From an uncultured virus (IMG/VR IMGVR_UViG_3300027728_000010) (lineage: Duplodnaviria > Heunggongvirae > Uroviricota > Caudoviricetes): DNA of 64,000 nt. Shown one piece after another: positions 7,374-51,506 of this stretch. The translations under genes and the position numbers were made by a program. The stretch lies in the IMG/VR virus record IMGVR_UViG_3300027728_000010; one strand, written 5' to 3'. Below the pieces are notes generated by a model. The model made no database searches and was not told the DNA's origin. It saw only the letters and a list, made by a program, of their open reading frames with translations. Position 1 is the first letter of the stretch. The number at the start of each line of letters is the position of its first letter.

Positions 7374-7556
7374 ATGGGGTTTAATAAAAGAGTATTAAAA
7401 AAAGAAAATATACTTAATAATCTACATAATCTTGAAAACTACTTAAAAGCGGATGCTATTGTGTGTACCGACAATTTTTCTATGCAAGTCTATAACTTGT
7501 ATAAAAAAGGAGTAAAAAAAGAACAAATAATAAATTACATAAATAAAATAAAATGA
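7374..7556 (+). CDS. small hypothetical protein
   Basis: 60-aa ORF overlapping GS start (ATGA-type coupling). Confidence 0.6.
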   Translation: MGFNKRVLKKENILNNLHNLENYLKADAIVCTDNFSMQVYNLYKKGVKKEQIINYINKIK

Positions 7557-8674
7557 AAGTTACATTAGAATATGTGTGGTTGGATGGTTATTTACCTGAA
7601 CCTAACCTCAGAAGTAAAGTTAAAGTTGAAGAAATGGATTTAAACTCCATTGAGTTTAAATTTCCTGAATGGGGGTTTGATGGGTCATCTACAATGCAAG
7701 CTGACACTGAAAACTCAGATAGGATTCTTAAACCTGTGAAATATTACTCACAAAAAAGTTTTCCTTTGGAAAATAGTAGAGTTTATGTTTTATGTGAAGT
7801 TGTAAATCCTGACGGGACACCACACGAATCAAATATGAGGTCAAAAATAGAAGACCAAAGTGATGTTTGGTTTGGATTTGAACAAGAATACTTTATTAAA
7901 AACCAAAAAACAAATGAATTTTTAGGACACGATACTGGTTTTAGATTAGACCCTCAAGGTAAATACTATTGTGGTGTTGGTCACAATGTTGTTGGTCGTA
8001 GTTTTGCCGAAGAACATATGCGTTTATGTATGTTATATGGTATGGAAATTACCGGTATAAATGCGGAAGTTGCTCTTGGACAATGGGAGTATCAAATATT
8101 TTCAAAAGGTAGTTTAAATGCTGCGGACGATTTATGGATGAGTAGATATTTCTTGTACAGATTGTCTGAAAACTTTAACTATGAAATTGTATTACATCCA
8201 AAACCAATTACTGGTGATTGGAATGGTTCAGGAATGCATACAAACTTTTCAAATGAAAGAATGAGAAGTTTAGGTGGGTACGAATACTTCCAATCTATTT
8301 TTAATACGTTTGGTTCAAGACACGAAGACCATATAAAAGAATATGGTTCAAATAATAATATGAGATTAACCGGTAAACACGAAACACAAAATATTGATAA
8401 GTTTTCATACGGTGTTGGGGATAGAGGCTCATCAATTAGAATTCCTAAAACAACTGCTGAAAATTGGAGAGGTTATTTAGAAGATAGAAGACCAGCATCA
8501 AATGCCGATTCTTATAGAGTTGTTAATCAAGTTTTAAAATCTTTAAATACTGCTGAAGAACTTATGGAAATAACAATGAAAATGAATTCTAAAGTTGATA
8601 TTAAAAATATTGATGGTAAATACGGAACAAGACCGGCTGATGAATTATTAAAAGAATATAGAGAAGAGGAATAA
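7553..8674 (+). CDS. glnII: glutamine synthetase, GSII type
   Basis: LEYVWLDG, WGFDGSST, FGFEQEY, GINAEV..GQWEYQI, HPKP..DWNGSGMHTNFS, RLTGKHET, YLEDRRPASN motifs. Confidence 0.95.
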   Translation: MKVTLEYVWLDGYLPEPNLRSKVKVEEMDLNSIEFKFPEWGFDGSSTMQADTENSDRILKPVKYYSQKSFPLENSRVYVLCEVVNPDGTPHESNMRSKIEDQSDVWFGFEQEYFIKNQKTNEFLGHDTGFRLDPQGKYYCGVGHNVVGRSFAEEHMRLCMLYGMEITGINAEVALGQWEYQIFSKGSLNAADDLWMSRYFLYRLSENFNYEIVLHPKPITGDWNGSGMHTNFSNERMRSLGGYEYFQSIFNTFGSRHEDHIKEYGSNNNMRLTGKHETQNIDKFSYGVGDRGSSIRIPKTTAENWRGYLEDRRPASNADSYRVVNQVLKSLNTAEELMEITMKMNSKVDIKNIDGKYGTRPADELLKEYREEE

Positions 8675-30131: not shown

Positions 30132-30373
30132 GTGATTTTAATAGGACATATCCTAAACCTGGTGAAAAATACCAACACTATAAGGGTGGTCAATACGAAG
30201 TTATTTGTATGTGTAATCACACAGACACAAATGAACCACTTGTGATTTATAAATCAATTTCTTTTGGCTCACAATATGCGAGACCATTTTCTGAGTGGTT
30301 TAATGAGGTTAAACCTCGTATAATTGGTGATAAAGTGTACCCGATGAAAAGATTTGAAAAAATAGAAGAATAA
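30128..30373 (+). CDS. DUF1653 family protein
   Basis: YQHYKGGQYEV...E.LVIY...ARP..W. Confidence 0.85.
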   Translation: MSDFNRTYPKPGEKYQHYKGGQYEVICMCNHTDTNEPLVIYKSISFGSQYARPFSEWFNEVKPRIIGDKVYPMKRFEKIEE

Positions 30374-30690
30374 TGAATAAATTAGATTTAGATTATCAAA
30401 ATTTGCTCCAAGACATTTTAGATAATGGAATTGAAAAGAAAGACCGAACAGGTACAGGAACCAAATCAATATTTGGTTATACCATTCGTCATAATATGAG
30501 TGAGGGATTTCCTGTACTTACAACCAAGAAAATGTATTTCAAAGGAATTGTAACAGAATTGTTATGGTTCTTACGTGGTGATACATCAATAGAGTATCTA
30601 CTCAAAAACGATTGTAATATATGGACGGGTGACGCATATCAAGCATACTTGAAGGAATGTGAAAAGTTAAAAAAAGATGAAGAAAAATAA
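30373..30690 (+). CDS. thyA: thymidylate synthase, N-terminal fragment
   Basis: DRTGTGT, FPVLTTKK, ELLWFLRG, NIW; ends in TAA. Confidence 0.92.
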   Translation: MNKLDLDYQNLLQDILDNGIEKKDRTGTGTKSIFGYTIRHNMSEGFPVLTTKKMYFKGIVTELLWFLRGDTSIEYLLKNDCNIWTGDAYQAYLKECEKLKKDEEK

Positions 30691-30734: not shown

Positions 30735-31706
30735 ATGTGTCTAAAAAATAAAATTGAAACAACACTGTGTGTGTTAAAAAATGGTGAATATAAAATATTA
30801 TCTCAAAAATTGAGGGTTATTAATACATTATTTATTAATGAGATTGTTAATTATACCAAATTTTTAGATGAATATAATCCTAAATTAGTTGATAGGGTAA
30901 GATATATCTTAAAATCTAAAGATAGTATTAATACGTGTATTCATTGTAGTAAACCTATAATTGATTTAAATAAAATGTTTTGTTCCACTAAGTGTAATAA
31001 TAATTCTGAACAAACAAAAAATAAATTTAGAGAGAATTATCAAAATTTATCTGAAACGGAAAAAATAGTAAGAAATGACAAAAGAACTAAAACTGTTAAT
31101 CAAAAATACGGTGGGTATACTTTACAAAGTCCTGAACTAAAAAAGAAAATGAAATCAACTATGATTCAAAAATATGGTGTTGAACATTCTTTTCATAGTG
31201 ACACGATAAAACAAAAAGCGTTAAATACTTGGATTAAAAAGTATGGAGTAGATAACCCATTCAAATCTAGTAATATAAAAGAGAAAATAAAACAAGTATT
31301 AAAAGATAGGTATGGTGTTGATAATTCAGCTAATGTTAATCCAGAAATTAGAGTTAATAAAGGTATTAAAACAAAAATTGAAAGGGGGTGGATAATACCT
31401 GATGAGTTTTTATCGGATTACCAAATTTACAGAAAAAAAGTTAAACGATTAACTGAAACAACATATAAAACATATAAAAATATTATAAACCCAAATAATT
31501 TAGAAAGAGTTACGAATGGAAAAAATGGGTATCAGTTAGACCACAAATATTCAATAATTGAAGGATTTTTGAATAATGTAGAACCAAAAATTATTAGTCA
31601 TCACCGTAATCTACAAATGATAGAATGGGGTAGTAATAGAGCTAAAAGTAAAAGATGTGATATTGATTTAGAACAATTAAAAAATGAAATAAAAAGTTAT
31701 GAATAA
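30735..31706 (+). mobile_element. HNH homing endonuclease splitting thyA
   Basis: KYGVxN repeats; C-terminal LDHKYS...RNLQMI...NRAK. Confidence 0.85.
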
Positions 31707-32451
31707 AGAACATTTACATTCGGAAGGGAGACCTTACACAAAAGAAGAATTTGTTGAAAAAATTAAAACTGATAAAAAGTTTGCTGAGAGATTTGGAAAT
31801 CTTGGAAAAATCTATGGGTATCAATGGCGTAATTGGAATGGAGAAATTGACCAAATATCAGATTTGATTAAACAACTCAAAGAGAGCCCTGATAGTCGTA
31901 GATTACTTGTTTCAGCGTGGAACCCATCAGATTTACCACACCAAGTTCTACCACCTTGTCATTATGGATTTCAAGTTTATACAAGAGAGTTGAGTTTAGA
32001 AGAAAGATTAGAGTTAGCATTAAAAACTTATGATGTGTTTGACCCATTAGATTTTGGCATTCCAGCCAAAGTAGACCACGATGAAATTGATAAAATGTAT
32101 CCTGTTCCCAAACGAGCAATCTCTTTAATGTATAATGCCAGAAGCCAAGATGTTCCACTCGGAACACCATTTAATTTAGCATCTTATGGATTACTTCTAA
32201 TGATATTAGCAAAAGAGGTTAATATGGTTCCTGATGAGTTGATTGCAAATATGGGTGATTGTCATATCTATATGAATCAAATTGATGGTGTGAAAGAACA
32301 ATTAACAAGAGAACCATTTGAGTTACCAACTCTTAATCCGTTCCCAACTTATGAAGGGTCAAGACCATCCATAGAATCTTATACTATTGGTGATTTTACA
32401 CTTAAAAATTACAAATCACACCCAAGTATAAAAATGCCACTTTCTAATTAA
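31699..32451 (+). CDS. thyA: thymidylate synthase, C-terminal fragment
   Basis: LGKIYGYQWR, SRRLLVSAWNP, catalytic LPPCH, RSQDVPLGTPFN, GDCHIY. Confidence 0.92.
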   Translation: MNKEHLHSEGRPYTKEEFVEKIKTDKKFAERFGNLGKIYGYQWRNWNGEIDQISDLIKQLKESPDSRRLLVSAWNPSDLPHQVLPPCHYGFQVYTRELSLEERLELALKTYDVFDPLDFGIPAKVDHDEIDKMYPVPKRAISLMYNARSQDVPLGTPFNLASYGLLLMILAKEVNMVPDELIANMGDCHIYMNQIDGVKEQLTREPFELPTLNPFPTYEGSRPSIESYTIGDFTLKNYKSHPSIKMPLSN

Positions 32452-34902: not shown

Positions 34903-36813
34903 ATGAAAATTATCTTTAACCTAACCTTAACCCTTTTATTATTATTACCATTTATTGGTTTTTCACAAGTAGTTCCCCAAGCACCATCAAATGGTATTTG
35001 GGGACTAATTGACACTCAGTATCAAGTTGGTACAACAGCTCAAGGAACAACACAAGCAAAAATAACTTTACAAAACACTACCGTTACAAAATATGCTGGT
35101 ACACAATTTAGAGTTTTTTATGACAACGTTGCTTTTACAAATGCTACCGTTTCTTTAATTGGTTCAACAACAAACTTAGATTTACAATATGTAACAAATA
35201 CTGCAAATGGTTTTATTACTATTACTTTAGTTTATACGGGACCAAGTTCAACTTACACTTTAGCAAATGGTGAAAGATTTTTAATCACTTTTACTCACGC
35301 AGCTCCTGCAGTGTTTAATAACTTAGCTGCGATATCCCCATTAACGTGGACAGGAGCACAAGTGTTTCCATCATATACAGCAAAACAAGATGGTATGGAT
35401 ACCACGTTTAATGTACATAACTATGGAGGTAACTTTATATTCCAAAACTTTCAATATGCAGGGACATTTACAAACGTAACAGGTTCACCGGCTAAATATC
35501 TTCCATTGGCTCTTCAAAGAAGACCACAAACTGGAGGTTCTTGGGTTCAACACTCGGCATATACTACCGACATTAATGGAAACTTTTCAATATCAGTACC
35601 ATTGGATACAACATATTGGGATGTTAGATTAGCAATCCAAGGAGACACTATGGGTGTTGGTAATGTTGTTTCATCAACAGATGCACAACAAGTTAACCAA
35701 TGGGTGTTAGGTAATGGTACTATGACAGGATTTGATTATTACACTTCTGATGTAAACAATTCAGGAAACATTACAATTTCAGATGTATGGGGTGTATTTG
35801 GTAGAGTATCGGGTAGATTTACAGATTGGCCAAATAACGTACAAGATGTTAAATTCTTTACGGCTTCTGAATATTCAACAATTAACGGGTCTAACACAAA
35901 CTACACACAATCAATACAAGGTGTAACAAACTTTACTTTTGATATAGTTGCAGGTCAACCATCTACTGTTACTTTCTATGTAATGGTTCCAGGTGATGCT
36001 AACGGTACAGGTTACCACATGGCTCGTGTAACACCTATTGAAGTATTAGTAGGACCTATACCTGGTTTACAATCACAAATTTATAATGTGATTGATACTA
36101 AAGTTGAGTACGATTTCCCAACATCAACAATAGAAGTAAATGTTCCAAACATTACTGTTGAAGCAGGAAACTTGGTAAACTTACCTGTAAAAGTTTATAC
36201 AAACGGACAGGAATTATCATCATTACAATTTGGATTAAAATATGACACAGACCTTTTAGAATTCAAAGGGATTTATTCCACATCAAATACTATGGAATGG
36301 ATTACATATGTTAATCCTAATGATGGACAAGTTGATTGGGGTGGGTTTGATATTACAAATAACGAACAAACATTAAAAAATGGTGATGAGGTTGTAACTC
36401 TTCAGTTTATTGCAAAACAACCACAAAATCTTTGGGAAGATAGTCCATTATACACTTCTTTAAAGTTTGCGGGAAATAACGAAGCTAAAGATTTAACAAT
36501 CACACCAACAAATGGAATTCTTCAAGTATTGAAAAGTAATATTGGTGAATTGAATGGTAATGTAATATCTGTATATCCTAATCCGGTAACAACAGATGTG
36601 ACAATCACATTTGAAGTAAAAGAAACGACAAATGCAAATCTTTCAGTATACGACATGGTTGGTAGAAAGTTAGTTACAATTTTGGACACACAAATACCAA
36701 ACGGACAATATACTTACAATGAAAATTTAGGACAATTAGAGCCTGGAGTTTACATAGTGACTTTAAACGTTGAAAATGAAACTCCAAAATTTGAAAAAAT
36801 TGTAAAACAATAA
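34903..36813 (+). CDS. secreted protein with cohesin- and dockerin-like domains and T9SS C-terminal sorting domain
   Basis: signal peptide; DVNNSGNITISD; LSSLQFGLKYDTDLLEF; ISVYPNP...YDMVGR...PGVYIV...KIVKQ. Confidence 0.85.
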   Translation: MKIIFNLTLTLLLLLPFIGFSQVVPQAPSNGIWGLIDTQYQVGTTAQGTTQAKITLQNTTVTKYAGTQFRVFYDNVAFTNATVSLIGSTTNLDLQYVTNTANGFITITLVYTGPSSTYTLANGERFLITFTHAAPAVFNNLAAISPLTWTGAQVFPSYTAKQDGMDTTFNVHNYGGNFIFQNFQYAGTFTNVTGSPAKYLPLALQRRPQTGGSWVQHSAYTTDINGNFSISVPLDTTYWDVRLAIQGDTMGVGNVVSSTDAQQVNQWVLGNGTMTGFDYYTSDVNNSGNITISDVWGVFGRVSGRFTDWPNNVQDVKFFTASEYSTINGSNTNYTQSIQGVTNFTFDIVAGQPSTVTFYVMVPGDANGTGYHMARVTPIEVLVGPIPGLQSQIYNVIDTKVEYDFPTSTIEVNVPNITVEAGNLVNLPVKVYTNGQELSSLQFGLKYDTDLLEFKGIYSTSNTMEWITYVNPNDGQVDWGGFDITNNEQTLKNGDEVVTLQFIAKQPQNLWEDSPLYTSLKFAGNNEAKDLTITPTNGILQVLKSNIGELNGNVISVYPNPVTTDVTITFEVKETTNANLSVYDMVGRKLVTILDTQIPNGQYTYNENLGQLEPGVYIVTLNVENETPKFEKIVKQ

Positions 36814-45093: not shown

Positions 45094-45786
45094 ATGATAC
45101 TCACCATAATTTCAGACACACACAACAACCACAAAAAAGTTACAGGTGATTTACCGGGTGGTGATTTGTTAATACATGCTGGTGATTTGAGTTCTATGGG
45201 TTATGAGCATGAAATTCGTGAGTTTGCAAAGTGGTTTGATAGTTTAGACAATTATACAAGTAAAGTTTTTATTTCAGGTAATCACGATTGGGGGTTTCAA
45301 AACAACTCTGAAAAAATTAAAGAGATTATTGGTTTTTATAAAGACATCAACTATCTTGAAGATGATTTTATGGGGATAATAGAAGGGGGTGGTCCTGAAG
45401 TTAAAATTTGGGGTAGTCCTTGGCAACCTGAGTTTTATAACTGGGCATTCAATTTACCACGAAATGGTGATGAGTTGAAATCGAAGTGGGATATGATACC
45501 TGACGACATAGATATATTAATAACTCACGGACCAGCTTGGGGTATTTTAGATGATGTTGAAGGTAGAAGAGGATATCACTTGGGTTGTGAGTTACTTGCG
45601 GAGAGAATTAAACAAATAAAACCAAAAATTCATATCTGTGGACACATTCATAGTGGTTACGGACATTATTACGATGGACATACTCATTACTTTAACGCGG
45701 CGGTATTAAATGAACGATACTTATATTCCCATATGCCTTGGAATGTTGATTGGAACCCAATAACAAATGAGATTGTTTTTTTATAA
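45094..45786 (+). CDS. calcineurin-like metallophosphoesterase
   Basis: SDTH, HAGD, GNHD, THGP, GHIH. Confidence 0.93.
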   Translation: MILTIISDTHNNHKKVTGDLPGGDLLIHAGDLSSMGYEHEIREFAKWFDSLDNYTSKVFISGNHDWGFQNNSEKIKEIIGFYKDINYLEDDFMGIIEGGGPEVKIWGSPWQPEFYNWAFNLPRNGDELKSKWDMIPDDIDILITHGPAWGILDDVEGRRGYHLGCELLAERIKQIKPKIHICGHIHSGYGHYYDGHTHYFNAAVLNERYLYSHMPWNVDWNPITNEIVFL

Positions 45787-45812
45787 AATAAACCACTCGA
45801 AAGGGTGGTTTA

Positions 45813-46499
45813 TTATTTAAGATTTAAATCAAACCAATCTATTTCAGGGTTAAAAAATCTTACGTTAGAAGAAAAAATAGACATCACATCTTGTAAAAAA
45901 TCATCATATAGAAAATCCAAATAGTCGTCATAAACAGGACCAATTTGTACAGCATTGAAAAAATCCTTTTTAGAAATAATATCAACCGTTTCTTGAGGGT
46001 ATGTAATTTTTTTTATTTTTAGAAAATCGTAATCTACTTCTATTTCTGTGTGCTGACCCGTTGGATATACCATAAATTTTTTATATCTACAATCAATATC
46101 AAACTCAACATCATCTGATTTAAAATTAATTTTTGTTTTTGGGGATAATATTTTTTCAATTTCTTGTTTGTCTTTTTTTCCTATATAAGCATTGTATCTT
46201 GGTTTATGCCAAAATTTAACAATAAAATCTTGGTATAACATGAGGTCAATATTCATAATACGTGCAAAACTTTTGAATTCATCCATTATAATATTATGTA
46301 AGATATTATAATTAAAAGAATAATCATTAGGGTTTGCAACGTCCCAAATAATTTCATTTTCTTTTTTATTATAAGTTGGTTCTAAAAATAAACCTTCAAA
46401 TTCAATAGGTTGTCTATTTAAAAACCTATCATAAAAATACCAAACGTAGTCAATATTCTCGGTCTCTTCTTTTAATACTTGTCTAATCAAACGTTTCAT
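45813..46499 (-). CDS. hypothetical protein with LIRQVLKEE leader
   Basis: 228-aa ORF. Confidence 0.7.
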   Translation of the reverse strand: MKRLIRQVLKEETENIDYVWYFYDRFLNRQPIEFEGLFLEPTYNKKENEIIWDVANPNDYSFNYNILHNIIMDEFKSFARIMNIDLMLYQDFIVKFWHKPRYNAYIGKKDKQEIEKILSPKTKINFKSDDVEFDIDCRYKKFMVYPTGQHTEIEVDYDFLKIKKITYPQETVDIISKKDFFNAVQIGPVYDDYLDFLYDDFLQDVMSIFSSNVRFFNPEIDWFDLNLK

Positions 46500-46535
46500 G
46501 TTATATTATAAATATAATACTGAATATTTATTAGT

Positions 46536-47780
46536 ATGAGAATTATAATAACTGAATCACAACTTAAAATTTTAAATGAGGTTGTAGGAGTACCTGAGAA
46601 TATATTAGATGCTGCTGAAAAACTATATAACGAGGTTGAAAAACACGTAAAATCAATTGACACCAAAGAAGAAGAATATGAATTTGATGGTAGTTTGGAT
46701 GTGGAGATGGGAACAAAAAAGAAAATACAAATCACAGACTACGAACTAACGGTTAAAATTGAAGAAGTTGAAAATTACAAAGGTAAGCCCGATATTATAT
46801 CAATGGGGGTTGCACAAGCTTTTATGTTTGACAGAAGAATTTTAATGAAAGTATCTGAAAAAACGGCAAAATTGAATTTATTTATAACTTTTGTTGTTGG
46901 TGAAAATTGGGAACCAAATGAGTTATTTGAAGTGATGGAAAATGATAAAACTAATCAAACTGCGTCACTTGCTCACGAACTAAAACACAAGTATGATAAA
47001 CAAGCAAAACCATTTGCACTAATAGGTAAAGATGCAGAATACCAAGCAGTTCAAAGGGTTGGCACATTTGGAATACCTGCAATTGACAAAAAATTTTTCA
47101 GATATGCTTATTTTATTTCAGGGATTGAAAATTTGGTAAGACCAACTGAAATTGCTTCACAAATGAAAAGTAAAAATCTTAAAAAGTCAGAATTTGAAGA
47201 GTTTACAAAAACAGAAAGAGTTTTTCAAGAACTAAATCAAATTAAAAATTACACCTTTGAGAAGTTTATTGAAGATATAAAATCAAATATGGGAAGAGTT
47301 GATGCTCTTTTAGATTTTGTTGGTGAAGATTATTCTGATATGACTGATGATGAAAAAATTAAAGCAGTATTAGACCTTGTATATATTAACATTACTAATC
47401 ACAGAGCTGAAATTTTTATGAATATGACTGCTGATAGTATGGATGATTTAATAAGAATGTCTTCCGTTTTTGGCCAACTGCCAAGCCAACTTATTAAAAA
47501 GGCAAAAGAATTAGAAAAAACAGATGAAGTAAGAAAAAAGTTTTTAAGTTATATTTCCAAAAATCAAAATAACCCGATAAAATTTTTTGAAGATGAAATT
47601 GAAAATTTTAACTATGTTGCAAACAAAATGTTAAAAAAACTTTCAAAACTTTACTCCATCGCAAAAGATGACGATGTTAATGAATCAATACAAAATTGGG
47701 ATTTACATCAAAAATTAATGGAAAAAAAATATGGTAAAAGAAAAATAGACACAACTTACAAATACAAAAACTTTAAATAA
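46536..47780 (+). CDS. HExxH protein with IIITESQ leader
   Basis: AHELKH. Confidence 0.7.
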   Translation: MRIIITESQLKILNEVVGVPENILDAAEKLYNEVEKHVKSIDTKEEEYEFDGSLDVEMGTKKKIQITDYELTVKIEEVENYKGKPDIISMGVAQAFMFDRRILMKVSEKTAKLNLFITFVVGENWEPNELFEVMENDKTNQTASLAHELKHKYDKQAKPFALIGKDAEYQAVQRVGTFGIPAIDKKFFRYAYFISGIENLVRPTEIASQMKSKNLKKSEFEEFTKTERVFQELNQIKNYTFEKFIEDIKSNMGRVDALLDFVGEDYSDMTDDEKIKAVLDLVYINITNHRAEIFMNMTADSMDDLIRMSSVFGQLPSQLIKKAKELEKTDEVRKKFLSYISKNQNNPIKFFEDEIENFNYVANKMLKKLSKLYSIAKDDDVNESIQNWDLHQKLMEKKYGKRKIDTTYKYKNFK

Positions 47781-48010
47781 AATGATTTTAACAATTGCAA
47801 TTTTTCTAATAGTTTTAATTTTAGTTTTCATCAAAGATAGTGTTGATGCCATTACTTTTGTTTGGGTTGAAAATCCAAAATTTGCAATCATTTCAATATT
47901 GGTTATAATATTTTTAATGTATTTTTTCTTTTTTGAACCATTAAAACTTTTTTATGATTTTTTAGAAACGGGAGTTTTTTAAATCAAATTATTTTCATAT
48001 CTTTATTTTT

Positions 48011-48616
48011 ATGAAAGTATTATTTTTAGATAATGATGGGGTAATTTGTTTATCCAACAATTGGGGTGGTCGTTCTAAAAAATGGTCCAAGTACCGTTCA
48101 GCAAATCCCGACAGTAGTAAGGAAAAGAAAGATGCGCCTGTTGAATATCGTTTTGATGACTTTGATAGTAAAGCGATTAAAGTTCTTAATGAAATTATTG
48201 AAGATACTGGCTGTGAAATTGTTGTAAGTTCTGATTGGAGACTTCACGCAAATTTGGAAGAACTTGGATACTATTATATGAAACAAGGAATAATAAAAAA
48301 ACCAATTGCGGTTACCGATATATTCCAAGACATTTTTCCAAAAGAATGGAACGCATTTAGATTTCGTGCTGATTTAGAATTAGAAAGAAGTATGGAGATT
48401 AATCATTGGTTAGAAAATCATCCTGAAATAACTCATTGGGTTGCAGTTGATGATTTAAATATGAGTGTGGAGTTTTTAGGTGATAGATTTTCTTCTAAAG
48501 ACGGGTCCGACAAGAAACCTGGTTTATTTAATTTCGTATTAACTCCAAAATCAAGTGAAGGAATTAAACAAAGTGGAATTAAAGAAAAAATAATTAAATA
48601 TTTGAAAGATGAGTGA
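48011..48616 (+). CDS. HAD-family phosphatase (HAD_SAK_2-like, RNA repair-associated)
   Basis: FLDNDGV, IVVSSDWR, WVAVDDL. Confidence 0.85.
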   Translation: MKVLFLDNDGVICLSNNWGGRSKKWSKYRSANPDSSKEKKDAPVEYRFDDFDSKAIKVLNEIIEDTGCEIVVSSDWRLHANLEELGYYYMKQGIIKKPIAVTDIFQDIFPKEWNAFRFRADLELERSMEINHWLENHPEITHWVAVDDLNMSVEFLGDRFSSKDGSDKKPGLFNFVLTPKSSEGIKQSGIKEKIIKYLKDE

Positions 48617-48778
48617 CAAGTTTAAAAATCTTAAAGTAGGAGATAGAGTAAAAACTAAATTATCAGGAATGGCAATTGTAATAGAAGTTGGTTGTTATGG
48701 TGGACATATGGTAAAATTAATGTGCGACAATCCAAGGTGGTGTTGTCCTTATTTTTATAAAACTGAATTAGAATTGGT

Positions 48779-49165
48779 ATGATGACTAAAGAAGAGATGA
48801 ATGATTATCTTGAGTCAATAGGTGGACTTGAGAATGGTATGTATTCTAACAAACCAAAAATTACTAGTTGTAACTTTTTTGATGTTGATGCTGGTTGGTA
48901 TTTGTTGATTAAAAATTTAATTGACGAACTCATAAAATTGGGTTGGGATAAAAAAATAACACAAGTAAAAGAAAAGTTTGGAGGCTTAAGATTTTATATT
49001 AATGGTGGGTCTGATGAGATATATGAAAAAATTACCGAAGCGGAAAAGTTAAGTTATGAAACATGTGAACTTTGCGGTAAAAAAGGAGAATTAAGAACAA
49101 AAATACGTTGGTTTACAACTTTATGTGATGAACATTATGAACAAAAACATACACCATTTATTTAA
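48779..49165 (+). CDS. conserved phage protein (QVKEKFGGLRFY, CxxC)
   Basis: recurring phage motif. Confidence 0.75.
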   Translation: MMTKEEMNDYLESIGGLENGMYSNKPKITSCNFFDVDAGWYLLIKNLIDELIKLGWDKKITQVKEKFGGLRFYINGGSDEIYEKITEAEKLSYETCELCGKKGELRTKIRWFTTLCDEHYEQKHTPFI

Positions 49166-49451
49166 AACAAATCCATCACTTTTAGACAATGTAGAAGTTC
49201 AGGAACTAATTGAATATTGTCGTGAGTTAGAAGGTAAAATACTTGAAAGAAAAATTGAAGATGAGTATAGTAAAGAACAATATTATGCTCAAGTCTTCAA
49301 AGACATATATCAAAGTTGTAACGATACGTTAAACGACGATGCGTTGGCTGAAAGGTTCAAAGAAACACCGAGAGTTGATTTTAAAGAAACTATATCCAAC
49401 TTAAAAAAATATATGTTAGAAATGTGTAGATTATATAAATTAGATTTGTAA
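49137..49451 (+). CDS. hypothetical protein
   Basis: ORF track. Confidence 0.6.
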   Translation: MNKNIHHLFKTNPSLLDNVEVQELIEYCRELEGKILERKIEDEYSKEQYYAQVFKDIYQSCNDTLNDDALAERFKETPRVDFKETISNLKKYMLEMCRLYKLDL

Positions 49452-49815
49452 AATTAAAATAATTTCTTATCTTTGTTTTTATGAAAAAACCTTGTAAGGA
49501 ATGCCCGCACCTTATTCGTAATCGTCATAACGATGTTATTGTTGATTTTGCTAAGAGAACTGGTAAAAAACATAATTGTCATATGACTGAAGGGAAAAAA
49601 GATTTATGGAATGTTACAGATAAAAAATTAGAATGTTATGGAAGTAAAAATGGTTAAAGAAAAAGTGGTTGAAATCATCCAAAAAAATCGAAACTTGAAT
49701 CAAAATGAATTAATTTGGTTACCTGAAATACGAAATTATAATTTACCAACTTCAACTATATTAGTATTAATAGAAATGGTAAAAAAAAATCAAAAATAAT
49801 TCATATATTTGTCAA

Positions 49816-50091
49816 ATGGAAACAAAGAGTAATACAGAACTAACCGGAGATAAAATCAATGTATTCGTTGAAAGATTAAAAAAAATTGGAATAGATGTAA
49901 AACTATCAGGAAACTTTCCTTGGATTTATCTTGATGAAATCTGTGGTATAAGAGTTAAAGAAACTTTCCAAGCAAACCACGGATTTACTGTGATGTTTTT
50001 ACCTGGAAGAAATGACTCACCACCATCCGACTTTACAGACATTAAAGAAATATTCAAGTTAATTAGAGAATATAAAAACAAAATAAAATGA
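49816..50091 (+). CDS. hypothetical protein upstream of array-containing ORF
   Basis: TATATTTG promoter; overlaps next start codon. Confidence 0.7.
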   Translation: METKSNTELTGDKINVFVERLKKIGIDVKLSGNFPWIYLDEICGIRVKETFQANHGFTVMFLPGRNDSPPSDFTDIKEIFKLIREYKNKIK

Positions 50092-50861
50092 TTAATCCAA
50101 AAGGAAAAAAATTAGAGAAACTTTTATTTGGAATCTTTGACGAGGCCATACAAGGGGTTGATACATATAACCATAATGGTAATTTGTGGTTGATTTTCAC
50201 TGATGAGATGAGGTGGGTTGTGGAATACACCAAAGAACAAACTCTATGGTATAACTATAGTTTCTTCAAACAAGAGATGGAAATTATTGGTTTGGATTGT
50301 GTTGAAAATAAAGATTTAATTCAAAAATGGTTTGAGTCAAGATTCTTAAATATTAATTCAGTTGAAGATACCATTCAAAATGGGGTGAAACACACCTCCA
50401 TGAATAATCCAAGGCGTTTGCTGCTTGTTGAAGATACCATTCAAAATGGGGTGAAACACACCTCTCTCATTGTCAATGGTTGGTTTGCTCGAGTTGAAGA
50501 TACCATTCAAAATGGGGTGAAACACACCGAATGGTCGGATTCAAATGGAAAAGTCATGGTTGAAGATACCATTCAAAATGGGGTGAAAAACACCAGAAAG
50601 GGAAATCCATATTTTCAGGAGTCCGTTGAAGACACCATTCAAAATGGGGTGAAATACGCCTATGTAGTGGAGGGACAACGTCAGTTACCGGTTAAAGATA
50701 CCATTCAAAATGGGGTGATACACACCTTCCACAAACGAAACATTCCTAACCCCGCGGTTGAAGATACCATTCAAAATGGGGTGATACACACCCAATCCAT
50801 TGAAATCATGTCCGCTGAACGTGTTGAAGATACCATTCAAAATGGGGTGATACACACCTAA
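50088..50861 (+). CDS. ORF with 91-aa N-terminal domain reading in-frame into the CRISPR-like array
   Basis: repeats translate as VEDTIQNGV(K/I)HT + 10 variable aa; stop in spacer 8; frame resumes to TAG at 51059. Confidence 0.6.
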   Translation: MINPKGKKLEKLLFGIFDEAIQGVDTYNHNGNLWLIFTDEMRWVVEYTKEQTLWYNYSFFKQEMEIIGLDCVENKDLIQKWFESRFLNINSVEDTIQNGVKHTSMNNPRRLLLVEDTIQNGVKHTSLIVNGWFARVEDTIQNGVKHTEWSDSNGKVMVEDTIQNGVKNTRKGNPYFQESVEDTIQNGVKYAYVVEGQRQLPVKDTIQNGVIHTFHKRNIPNPAVEDTIQNGVIHTQSIEIMSAERVEDTIQNGVIHT

Positions 50862-50990
50862 ATTCGAGGCGTTAAAATAGGATTGCTCGTTGAAGATACC
50901 ATTCAAAATGGGGTGATACACACCTTCGCAACTTCTAAAAGGCATCGATTGAAAGTTGAAGATACCATTCAAAATGGGGTTAAACATTGT
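50361..50990 (-). CRISPR. cas-less CRISPR array, type VI-B-like: ten 36-nt repeats, nine unique 30-nt spacers; degenerate 11th copy at ~51024
   Basis: repeat GTTGAAGATACCATTCAAAATGGGGTGA(A/T)ACACACC at exact 66-bp period; reverse complement resembles Cas13b direct repeats; strand inferred from that resemblance. Confidence 0.8.
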
Positions 50991-51092
50991 GAAGATGGTG
51001 ATTGGTTAGATGGTGATGAAAGGTTTGAAGATATTATTCAGAATGGTGAAAAAAAATAGATTTATTAAAAGATAATTTCTATCTTTGTTGTT

Positions 51093-51506
51093 ATGAAAAA
51101 GATTTACTTAGATGATGTTAGAACGCCAGTTGACAAAGATTGGATTGTTGTTCGTTCTTACGATGAGTTCGTTGAAAAAATAAATGATATTGGTCTAAAT
51201 GATATTGAACTTATTTCATTGGACCACGACTTGGGTGATAGTGCAATTGATGAATGGAAAAAAAATGTTTATACAAATTACACAATTGATTACAATAACA
51301 TTACAGAAAAAACAGGTATGGATTGTGTCAAATGGTTGGTTAACGAGTGGATGAATGGAAAACCAATTGTTGATGTTGTGGTTCATTCACATAATGCAAT
51401 TGGAAGTGGTAATATGATGGGTTATATTAATAACTACCGACATATCAATCGTTTGAAACAAAATTGCATTAGACTTGAGTGGGATTATACAATAGAAAAA
51501 ATATAA
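51093..51506 (+). CDS. cyclic-phosphate-processing receiver-like domain protein
   Basis: IYLDDVR, ISLDHDLG, TGMDCVKWL, HSHN. Confidence 0.8.
   Translation: MKKIYLDDVRTPVDKDWIVVRSYDEFVEKINDIGLNDIELISLDHDLGDSAIDEWKKNVYTNYTIDYNNITEKTGMDCVKWLVNEWMNGKPIVDVVVHSHNAIGSGNMMGYINNYRHINRLKQNCIRLEWDYTIEKI

Follow-up and report, generated by a model that had tools for sequence, protein, structure and literature searches.

Can an array of CRISPR-type repeats and inserts also be a gene, read through from one repeat to the next and kept for the peptide that it encodes? A CRISPR array is regarded as a non-coding record of earlier infections, and the locus considered here raises this question directly, as an array of 36-nt repeats and 30-nt inserts lies in frame within a gene of an uncultured virus of the Caudoviricetes (IMG/VR record IMGVR_UViG_3300027728_000010). 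We refer to the whole stretch of DNA that was analysed, 64,000 nucleotides in length, as the window. In what follows, we argue that the locus is a CRISPR-related array run that is translated and selected as a protein and that grows, at the end adjoining its N-terminal domain, by units of 66 nt; we would give this reading a probability of roughly 0.5. The alternatives, which differ in whether the array still grows, whether it has any link to CRISPR and whether its RNA or its protein matters, are weighed where the evidence that bears on them is given.

Organization of the locus and its relatives

Nine repeats of the window carry at most three mismatches to the 36-mer, where 100 shuffles gave an expectation of 0, and a tenth carries five (Table 1). 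The repeats start at 50361, 50427, 50493, 50559, 50625, 50691, 50757, 50823, 50889 and 50955, a period of exactly 66, and the nine inserts that separate them (10 residues each) are mutually unrelated. An earlier note on this DNA, made from the sequence by itself, had described ten repeats at these starts with nine unrelated 30-nt spacers, and the same starts and period were recovered. Its placing of the array directly after a 91-codon domain agrees with the ATG at 50088, which stands 273 nt before the first repeat; the two synonymous changes that it saw in a degenerate last copy are both present (CAG for CAA and GGT for GGG in the repeat at 51024-51056, which reads FEDIIQNGEKK); and the AT-rich leader that it found wanting is indeed missing, the array lying in frame behind a conserved coding domain. 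The TGA of the upstream gene overlaps the ATG of the array gene as ATGA. At the other end, the segment EDGDWLDGDER is conserved, and intact relatives such as P0001 end with the same segment.

Table 1. Features of the array gene and its immediate neighbours (positions in the window).
Feature	Position	Strand	Evidence
Upstream small gene, 91 aa, phrog_38683	49816..50091	+	
N-terminal domain of the array gene, 91 codons	50088..50360	+	
Ten 36-nt CRISPR-like repeats with nine unrelated 30-nt inserts	50361..50990	+	
TAA stop, first codon of insert 8	50859..50861	+	
Terminal segment EDGDWLDGDER, then degenerate last repeat, then TAG	50991..51059	+	
Downstream neighbour with cREC_REC (cyclic-phosphate processing receiver) domain	51093..51506	+	Pfam E 3e-22

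In 24 of 61 loci, a number that includes many redundant ones, a homologue of the cREC_REC gene follows the array at a distance of 0.8-1.3 kb, and we regard this neighbour as genomic context only. RNA-repair-type domains are found among the neighbouring genes (cREC_REC, HAD_SAK_2 and Metallophos).

Homologous proteins form 289 clusters, with lengths that step by 22 aa. At least two copies of the repeat motif are present in the proteins of 241 of 267 relatives, and a spacing of 22 aa was counted 664 times. The N-terminal domain stands at the N-terminus of 284 cluster representatives, and in 61 of 61 loci the array comes after it; the earlier note had suggested checking whether homologues of this domain are always followed by such arrays. 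The junction residues between domain and array vary among relatives, and distant members possess degenerate motifs and linkers of 23 to 45 aa, conserved mini-modules included.

Protein-level selection on the array

Because 36 + 30 = 66 nt, or 22 codons, every added unit stays in frame, and each unit of the window reads VEDTIQNGV(K/I)(H/N/Y)(T/A) followed by 10 variable residues. That the array lies in frame inside a protein-coding gene, its 66-nt period keeping the frame, had been claimed before and is confirmed from both the window and the family. The earlier note had further pointed to one stop among the spacer codons where about five would be expected. The count itself holds (1 versus 5.45 expected), and at most one stop occurred in 404 of 20,000 shuffles; taken by itself, the window thus provides weak evidence of stop depletion, which becomes decisive only across the family. 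There, the 190 unique inserts of 28 distinct arrays hold 1 in-frame stop in 1898 codons, the other five frames having 77-169 each, and random stop frequency, which the note had set against a coding role, is not what the family displays. The sole in-frame stop among these inserts is the window's own TAA at 50859. It shortens the window's copy to 257 aa and leaves the terminal segment and last repeat of this copy beyond translation from the ATG at 50088.

The lengths of the inserts tell in the same direction: across 255 units of the 28 distinct arrays they are multiples of 3 without exception (24 nt in 3 units, 27 in 8, 30 in 231, 33 in 12 and 36 in 1), and arrays of up to 24 units are fully open, as are ORFs of 632 aa. 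Gly8 of the repeat is invariant across four codons (GGG 176, GGT 49, GGA 40, GGC 5), the repeat peptide has a dN/dS-like ratio of 0.22, and homologous insert variants have a pN/pS of 0.31. Purifying selection thus maintains the repeat peptide VEDTIQNGVKxT throughout the family, and the array run is, on the evidence of the reading frame, translated sequence within a real gene family.

The N-terminal domain is predicted to be a well-folded alpha/beta domain (AF2 pLDDT ~97 over residues 1-88, and >90 in a distant member) that belongs to no Pfam or PHROG family and matches no solved fold. The repeat region received pLDDT values of 35-56 in one model and 27-40, as coil, in a second; LRR-like matches were returned for the first model only and were weak (Z <= 5.0, VIA-wide). 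Neither the protein nor the repeat could be assigned to a family in Pfam, PHROGs or Rfam. The 632-aa relative drew five weak PHROG hits (E 3e-5 to 0.01), no single matched stretch of which passed the cut-off. Foldseek against the PDB gave nothing at E <= 0.001, the ESM Atlas gave no usable feature match and structural neighbours with TM <= 0.31, and matches in BFVD were confined to uncharacterised proteins of uncultured phages. Since the repeat region has no confident fold, our best guess is that it may be a multivalent string of short linear motifs.

Array polarity and the nature of the inserts

The arrays are polar, with consensus repeats and private 30-nt inserts at the 5' end and degenerate, shared units at the 3' end. 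The further 3' a repeat lies, the more it departs from the consensus, a trend present in 33 of 34 arrays (median rho 0.74), and older repeat copies drift at synonymous sites with the peptide kept. The units at the 3' end are degenerate, common to several arrays and shifted towards phage codon composition. The earlier note had reasoned that homologous loci sharing the same inter-repeat segments would betray an ordinary repeat protein; instead, 68% of inserts in the 5' quarter of arrays are private, versus 47% in the 3' quarter, and 7 of the 9 window inserts are absent from the 267 relatives. The 203 unique 30-nt inserts fall into 181 clusters at 70% identity, and their pairwise identities are bimodal, either at least 20/30 or random-like. 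Between near-consensus repeats, the insert is exactly 30 nt in 22 of 23 cases.

Composition follows the same axis. The youngest inserts, a class of only 23, are flat across codon positions (GC1/2/3 = 0.44/0.38/0.365), and GC3 drops to 0.33, 0.31 and 0.23 with divergence of the flanking repeats (181 clusters, p = 0.0015); the phage genes have a GC3 of 0.20. Age is here judged indirectly, by how far the flanking repeats depart from the window's consensus, and the GC3 trend is also present by position within arrays. The amino-acid make-up of young inserts fits that of random sequence (r = 0.78), and that of old inserts does not (r = 0.23). Host spacers have a GC content of 0.377, and 52% of spacer-frame combinations among them are stop-free.

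Polar addition is not the sole process at work. Arrays that are shared in other respects may differ in an insert mid-way, and units have in some cases changed places, so that recombination is required; moreover, the same insert may be found in different array contexts, and some arrays contain duplicated inserts.

Contigs from lake metagenomes, which may include the source sample, confirm several inserts, and one spans 50830-50922 with 0 differences, confirming the insert that carries the TAA. This evidence consists of contigs, which break at repeats, and the two contig joints listed, with shorter sides of 21 and 27 letters, were not relied on. A shorter array variant co-occurs in lake metagenomes, with its branch point at 50588. 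The contigs of one metatranscriptome hold small pieces of the locus, or pieces from a relative.

The source of the inserts was sought at several scales. A local blastn-short comparison of 190 inserts with 647 kb of related phage DNA gave no match outside arrays; 19 inserts matched two near-complete phage genomes (304 kb and 281 kb) and the window no better than shuffled controls; exact scans of IMG/VR or JGI metagenomes with 7 young inserts and the TAA insert returned arrays only, or nothing, the two matches in JGI metagenomes both lying inside arrays; and ~60 inserts compared with 50,697 phage records gave nothing better than E 0.06. Accordingly, no protospacer was found for any insert by searches whose power is low for uncultured lake communities.

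These observations bear on the alternative that survives best, that of a fossil, which we nevertheless consider unlikely. The run would descend from a CRISPR array that was captured, or from repeat-like DNA into which units were once integrated, and would now be a coding minisatellite that no longer grows and owes its diversity to point mutation, to unequal crossing-over and to recombination when phages co-infect a cell. The likeness of the repeat to host repeats (see below) is real and would be expected on such a history, as would the signatures of recombination (internal replacement, swapped order, one insert in different contexts), the duplicated inserts and the lack of protospacers. What it accounts for poorly is the 5' end, where wholly unrelated inserts sit between identical 36-nt repeats and the young inserts are unameliorated and codon-flat in a genome of low GC3; nor does the bimodal distribution of identities offer the continuum that duplication and divergence should leave, and most of the window's inserts are missing from its relatives.

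Resemblance to host CRISPR repeats

Real 36+30 arrays are present in 5 of 301 Flavobacteriales genomes; two of these host arrays (G014 and G236) adjoin cas13b and one adjoins cas9-cas1. Compared without gaps, the window repeat is identical to host repeats of the VI-B/II-C type at 20-22 of 36 positions, and to the two cas13b-adjoining repeats at 20-21. Host repeats share 15-24 positions among themselves, except for one close pair at 33, and the window repeat is therefore about as similar to real host CRISPR repeats as these are to one another. The best likeness score was reached by 0 of 5000 shuffles and by 2 of 5000 random 36-mers from the window. The likeness to Bacteroidota Cas13b repeats that the earlier note had proposed is, in this respect, borne out.

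It is this likeness, together with the polarity of the arrays and their gradient of composition, that sets back a reading of the locus as a coding repeat pure and simple. On that reading, whose probability we place somewhat lower than that of a fossil, the gene would encode a hypervariable repeat protein of an ordinary kind, unconnected with CRISPR, its geometry and likeness being coincidence or convergence and its inserts unconstrained linkers. Selection acts on the motif at the protein level, as one would expect of such a protein, and the distant members, with their degenerate motifs, long linkers and mini-modules, would pass for one; false CRISPRs in coding tandem repeats are, furthermore, a known class (PMC5294841). 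However, a likeness that arises by chance in some 0-2 of 5000 trials would have to coincide with an exact 36+30 geometry, the inserts of young units would have to be fixed at 30 nt, and the foreign-like GC3 of both young inserts and consensus repeat would need another cause. False CRISPRs of this class are also without spacer diversity (PMC5294841), unlike the unrelated inserts found here.

Likeness of sequence is one thing and function as a CRISPR repeat another. All four host repeats that were folded form a terminal stem of 5-8 bp on both strands, whereas the window repeat forms none on either strand (z-scores -0.25 and -0.42), and a crRNA role with Cas13b is disfavoured for this reason. The repeat has no CRISPR-DR match in Rfam. 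What is fixed at its 3' end is a Thr codon and not ...CAAC; position 12 is Thr, Ile or Val, and ...CAAC is never restored. Among genomes, one from each of 185,579 species, an exact 20-mer of the repeat found no array and only 6 single matches, and in 401 Flavobacteriales genomes there is no array whose repeat comes within 3 mismatches over 23 nt. No Cas family is represented among the 117 ORFs of the window, and cas1 was not found in five related phage records, in a search whose control worked; a search of five related phage records (two of them at least 96% complete) for cas13b gave no match, as did its control genomes, which likewise lacked cas13b. Because several defining features of a VI-B array fail, the locus is not to be filed as a member of type VI-B.

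The same evidence leaves little room for a working Cas-less mini-array or RNA decoy, which we judge the least probable of the three alternatives. Here the transcript, of either strand, would be processed or bound by host Cas13b or by Cas9/tracrRNA, and would supply guides against competitors or titrate the host effector, with translation secondary (e.g., as a means of shielding the transcript from termination). The repeat is akin to those of VI-B/II-C arrays; crRNA-like decoys and mini-arrays are known from phages (10.1101/2024.10.29.618823); and the RNA-repair-type neighbours would fit a conflict with an RNase. Yet the repeat has neither the terminal stem of all four folded host repeats nor a CRISPR-DR match nor a restored ...CAAC end with its variable position 12, older copies have lost nucleotide identity and kept the peptide, no insert matches related phages, and selection on insert peptides, as measured by pN/pS, is unexpected for guides. 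Three alternatives had been offered in the earlier note, and two of them, a repeat protein diversified by spacer acquisition and a repeat protein derived from an array, both fit these data; the third, a mini-array exploiting host Cas13b, is disfavoured by the missing stem, the synonymous drift and the Thr codon at the 3' end.

A route by which the array may grow

On the reading that we favour, the gene belongs to the early region of an uncultured giant phage from a lake, with hosts of the Flavobacteriales type. Its product would consist of a folded 90-residue N-terminal domain and a run of 22-residue units, each made up of the conserved 12-residue VEDTIQNGVKxT and 10 near-random residues. At the DNA level, the run has the layout of a Bacteroidota class 2 (VI-B / II-C type) CRISPR array and is related to one in sequence. 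Growth would take place next to the N-terminal domain, at the 5' end, each step adding a repeat copy and new DNA of exactly 30 nt that is not phage-like. Roughly half of the new inserts would be free of stops, and selection would retain those. Units would later evolve as ordinary coding sequence, their third positions moving towards AT and indels occurring by whole codons, with the repeat peptide conserved over time as its codons change; recombination between arrays would also shuffle them. Against growth of this kind, the would-be leader is itself coding sequence.

The agent of addition may be host Cas1-Cas2 acting in trans, as on Cas1-less Flavobacterium VI-B arrays, and this is the most speculative step of the scheme. 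In Flavobacterium columnare, VI-B arrays gain spacers by way of the II-C Cas1-Cas2 in trans, and both VI-B and II-C arrays have 36-bp repeats (PMC8092290). By analogy, the host II-C Cas1-Cas2 might write repeat-spacer units into a phage gene whose repeat mimics that of the host, a captured 30-nt fragment becoming 10 new residues, and such a gene might also divert acquisition from the host's own arrays. We offer this version tentatively, at well short of even odds.

Comparison with known systems

The locus invites comparison with several known systems and coincides with none of them. It resembles the VI-B (Cas13b) arrays of Flavobacteriales in its 36+30-nt units, in a repeat identical at 20-22 of 36 positions, in having no adaptation genes of its own and in its polarity, the repeats passing from consensus at one end, where the inserts are private, to degenerate at the other. 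It differs in that the phage array is contained in an ORF and selection acts on it as protein, a coding domain takes the leader's place, the repeat has no terminal stem and no protospacers were found. The mini-arrays of viruses and huge phages, such as those of Sulfolobales viruses, are Cas-less, short and non-coding, with repeats nearly identical to those of a host array and spacers that target related viruses, host machinery being presumed necessary. The present locus is likewise a virus-borne repeat-spacer array without cas genes, but it extends to ~28 units, all of them apparently translated, has no near-identical host repeat in the genomes searched and carries inserts that match no related phage.

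Targeted hypervariation of proteins is known from diversity-generating retroelements and from the gp38 adhesins of T-even phages, in which hypervariable segments lie between conserved glycine-rich motifs. Common to these and to our locus is that diversity is very high but confined to defined segments of a phage protein, that conserved sequence flanks these segments and that this flanking sequence can serve recombination as well. Whole 30-nt segments are here exchanged for unrelated sequence within a unit of CRISPR geometry, unlike in the retroelements, and neither a reverse transcriptase nor a template repeat was seen in the window. A diversity-generating retroelement can in fact be dismissed, as there is no reverse transcriptase among the window's ORFs and the inserts are unrelated rather than adenine-mutated copies.

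The nearest precedent for an array-like element within a gene is that of false CRISPRs, coding tandem repeats such as SdrC of Staphylococcus aureus, which, in the terms of the source, have little or no spacer diversity and repeats unlike real CRISPR repeats (PMC5294841). The phage gene shares with them an element that looks like repeats and spacers and that is, or in the phage would be, expressed as protein. By that description of the class it departs from them in having mutually unrelated inserts and a repeat that resembles real CRISPR repeats.

Implications

Our searches of the literature for the motif, for translated or in-frame phage arrays and for freshwater jumbo phages found no description of such a gene. 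The case is relevant to annotation, since CRISPR finders would call the locus an orphan array and gene callers would call it a hypothetical protein. Even on the most conservative reading, it represents a large and uncharacterised protein family of giant phages. Hundreds of phage lineages have preserved, as an open reading frame, an array-like structure with CRISPR-type repeats, its repeat serving as a conserved peptide motif, and this suggests that the protein acquires new 10-residue peptides through the addition of repeat-insert units. If the writing were done by an integrase of the Cas1-Cas2 kind, the locus would possibly be a natural template for tools that record or diversify by writing into coding sequence. 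It would also represent a new route to protein hypervariability, in which the capture of DNA yields new peptide sequence, and a new interplay between phage and host at the step of CRISPR adaptation.

The array as a translated gene

The window has a GC content of about 0.30 and carries 93 of its 117 ORFs on the + strand. It is phage-like, and its gene content (a T9SS sorting domain, a DNA methylase, thymidylate synthase and lysis enzymes) fits that of a large phage infecting Bacteroidota. Each unit of its array, a 36-nt repeat followed by a 30-nt insert, reads in frame as VEDTIQNGVKxT plus ten variable residues. Nine repeats have at most three mismatches to the 36-mer, where none is expected by chance, and the tenth has five; the nine inserts show no mutual relatedness. 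A conserved EDGDWLDGDER segment and then a degenerate last repeat lie 3' of the repeats. The inserts hold one in-frame stop against 5.45 expected (404 of 20,000 shuffles have one or none), a scarcity that within the window alone is only suggestive.

Features of the window, in window coordinates
Feature	Position	Strand	Remark
Glutamine-synthetase-like ORF	7553-8671		N and C domains both present
Thymidylate synthase, first ORF	30373-30687		profile positions 2-90
ORF with DUF7487	30735-31703		between the two thymidylate synthase ORFs
Thymidylate synthase, second ORF	31699-32448		profile positions 77-265
636-aa ORF	34903-36810		C-terminal type IX secretion sorting domain (Por_Secre_tail, E 2e-11)
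Metallophos	45094-45783		RNA-repair-type domain
HAD_SAK_2	48011-48613		RNA-repair-type domain
Start ATG	50088	+	91 codons 5' of array; overlaps preceding ORF's stop as ATGA
Ten 36-nt repeats	50361-50990	+	spacing exactly 66 nt
Sole in-frame stop TAA	50859	+	in insert 8
cREC_REC	51093-51503		RNA-repair-type domain

A 25-mer of the repeat, searched in IMG/VR, returned 62 loci, 61 of them with copies of the repeat, which together with the window yield 28 distinct arrays. All 61 of these loci share an N-terminal domain of about 90 residues (N-domain) ahead of the array. Insert lengths in 255 units are all multiples of three, namely 24 nt (3), 27 (8), 30 (231), 33 (12) and 36 (1), and the 190 unique inserts hold one in-frame stop in 1898 codons, that of the window, against 77 to 169 stops in each of the other five frames. 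Arrays as long as 24 units stay open throughout; the ORF of locus L002 reaches 632 aa. Searching with the N-domain gave 289 protein clusters of 141-450 aa, their lengths stepping by 22 residues, none of which bears a name past "hypothetical protein" or any Pfam domain. There were 284 matches among 1.84 billion cluster representatives, and in the 150 matches listed (74-611 aa) the domain stands at or near the N-terminus. At least two motif copies occur in 241 of the 267 proteins fetched, spaced by 22 aa (664 cases), 23 aa (126) or 24 aa (33).

Purifying selection acts on the repeat peptide: codons that differ from the consensus by a single base give a dN/dS-like ratio of 0.22. Gly8 never varies across 270 distinct units and is encoded by GGG (176), GGT (49), GGA (40) and GGC (5); several codons are also in use for Val9, Lys10, Thr12 and Asp3. 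Between variants of one insert pN/pS is 0.31 (34 non-independent pairs), the ten insert positions being otherwise nearly free (3.95-4.19 bits of entropy at each position); S, L and R, which have six codons each, are the most frequent residues there. We put the probability that the array is translated and selected as a protein at roughly 95%. In AlphaFold models of two family members, pLDDT is about 97 and above 90 for the N-domain, and only 35-56 and 27-40 for the repeat region. The N-domain model matched none of the solved folds searched, and weak LRR-like hits for the repeat region (Z at most 5.0) come from a model of low confidence and do not recur with the second.

Tandem paralogues, each with N-domain and array, occur in several related phages (loci L009, L013, L014, L019, L035, L041 and L042); the second sometimes lies in a different frame from the first, and by eye each is open in its own. 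Distant members (P0175, P0186, P0198, P0218 and others) carry longer recurring modules between motifs in their older C-terminal parts, such as one of about 35 residues that begins KTPG.DGDI and another reading QPLPAQDGN...YY...; these resemble conserved mini-domains more than random inserts.

The window's allele and its neighborhood

We read the window's own gene as a truncated allele, because its TAA is the family's only stop; it would reflect either a nonsense mutation of recent date or a unit with a stop that has not been purged. The TAA recurs in a lake-metagenome contig, and that metagenome may be the window's source sample. The closest intact relative, P0001 (235 aa), has an N-domain 95% identical to the window's and terminates, as the window's locus does, with EDGDWLDGDERFEDIIQNGEKK. 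The two have only two inserts in common, YVVEGQRQLP and FHKRNIPNPA, in conserved order. Seven of the nine window inserts are absent from all 267 relatives, and an exact scan of IMG/VR with inserts 1-3 and 8 gave no match.

The window is present in lake-water metagenomes, 13 runs holding at least half of its sampled words. Three lake contigs (X1, X2 and X7) diverge from it inside repeat 4, at 50588, into ...HFEYGDWLD. They represent a co-occurring phage variant whose array runs directly into the conserved terminal segment, and array length thus varies in one lake population.

The array gene sits within a cluster of genes with RNA-repair-type domains (45094-51506), which may serve to counter host RNases. 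In 24 of 61 related loci, many of which are redundant, a cREC homologue lies 3' of the array; this may be mere synteny. Elsewhere in the window, the Por_Secre_tail ORF points to a Bacteroidota host, the split in thymidylate synthase resembles the insertion of an intron or homing endonuclease, and the glutamine-synthetase-like ORF is possibly an auxiliary metabolic gene.

Relation to CRISPR repeats

The earlier note had likened the repeat to Bacteroidota Cas13b repeats, and the likeness is borne out. Comparison arrays were gathered by a generic 36+30 pattern (GTTG...ACAAC, twice) in 301 sampled Flavobacteriales genomes, five of which hold real arrays of this geometry, which is exactly that of the window. 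Two of these arrays sit next to cas13b (NCBIfam E 5e-151 and 7e-246), another beside cas9 together with cas1. Ungapped, the window repeat matches these host repeats at 20-22 of 36 positions, while host repeats from different species share 15-24 with one another (33 in one close pair). Of 5000 shuffled versions of the window repeat none scored as high; of 5000 random 36-mers from the window, 2 did. The repeat is very probably related to Bacteroidota CRISPR repeats. In other features, however, it departs from a Cas13b repeat. The four host repeats that were folded all close a terminal stem of 5-8 bp on both strands, the window repeat on neither, and the 3' end of the window repeat is kept as a Thr (or Ile/Val) codon in place of ...CAAC.

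An Rfam search with the repeat gave no match. Five related phage records, of which two are 96-100% complete, yielded no cas1 and, in a search without a positive control, no cas13b. No host array carrying the window repeat turned up, whether as an exact 20-mer among representatives of 185,579 species or, with up to 3 mismatches allowed in 23 nt, among 401 Flavobacteriales genomes. In the genuine VI-B array beside cas13b of one Flavobacteriales genome (G014; L093:12510-13010), one frame contains a single stop over 498 nt and each of the other five 4-18, which may be chance, as there are only 7 spacers.

Proposed growth of the arrays

The arrays are polar. Repeat divergence from the consensus grows with distance from the N-domain in 33 of the 34 arrays with at least five units (median rho 0.74). 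Inserts private to one array make up 68% of the 5' quarter versus 47% of the 3' quarter, and the mean number of other arrays sharing an insert is 0.58 versus 2.36 (p = 6e-6). Beside near-consensus repeats the insert is 30 nt long in 22 of 23 cases, and older classes accumulate codon-sized length changes. Most telling is composition. When inserts were clustered into 181 families and classed by flanking-repeat divergence, GC3 fell from 0.365 in the youngest class (23 inserts) through 0.331 (51) and 0.306 (68) to 0.233 in the oldest (39; rho -0.23, p = 0.0015), GC1 and GC2 remaining constant; it also drops with relative position in the arrays, from 0.334 to 0.245 (p = 0.001). The youngest inserts are almost flat by codon position (0.44/0.38/0.365), against a GC3 of 0.204 in the window's own genes, and the amino-acid make-up of young inserts follows random-sequence expectation (r = 0.78), while that of old ones does not (r = 0.23). 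Young inserts thus look like newly arrived DNA.

We somewhat favor a polar mode of growth, in which units bringing novel inserts are added, the addition step itself being one we infer. Recombination between arrays clearly acts as well, which weighs against this reading: internal units are replaced, order is swapped, one insert occurs in differing contexts, and several loci carry tandem paralogous genes. Pairwise insert identity has a bimodal distribution: a pair agrees at 20 or more of 30 positions or is random-like. Ordinary duplication and divergence fails on identical repeats beside unrelated inserts and on foreign-like third positions in a genome with a GC3 of 0.20.

The agent of addition could, more tentatively, be host Cas1-Cas2, a guess from likeness and precedent. 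In Flavobacterium columnare, Cas1-less VI-B arrays acquire spacers via II-C Cas1-Cas2, and the repeats of both array types are 36 bp long (PMC8092290). Real host spacers have a GC of 0.377, and 52% of their spacer-frame combinations are stop-free, so that about half of random 30-nt additions would leave the frame open. Counting against this reading, insert sources could not be traced in related phage DNA, phage records or exact scans of IMG/VR and JGI metagenomes, and inserts do not match the phages' own genomes; capture during infection would therefore need selection against self-matching units, or host-derived inserts.

In the literature searched we found no published description of a translated CRISPR-like array or of the VEDTIQNGVKxT motif. 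Coding tandem repeats mistaken for CRISPRs are a known class, defined by absent spacer diversity (PMC5294841). In the growth that we propose, a 66-nt unit, consisting of a repeat copy and 30 nt of new, non-phage-like DNA, would be inserted beside the N-domain, stop-free units would be retained by selection, and the retained units would then age as coding sequence. The feature is real and highly unusual: a CRISPR-type array kept as a protein by phages.
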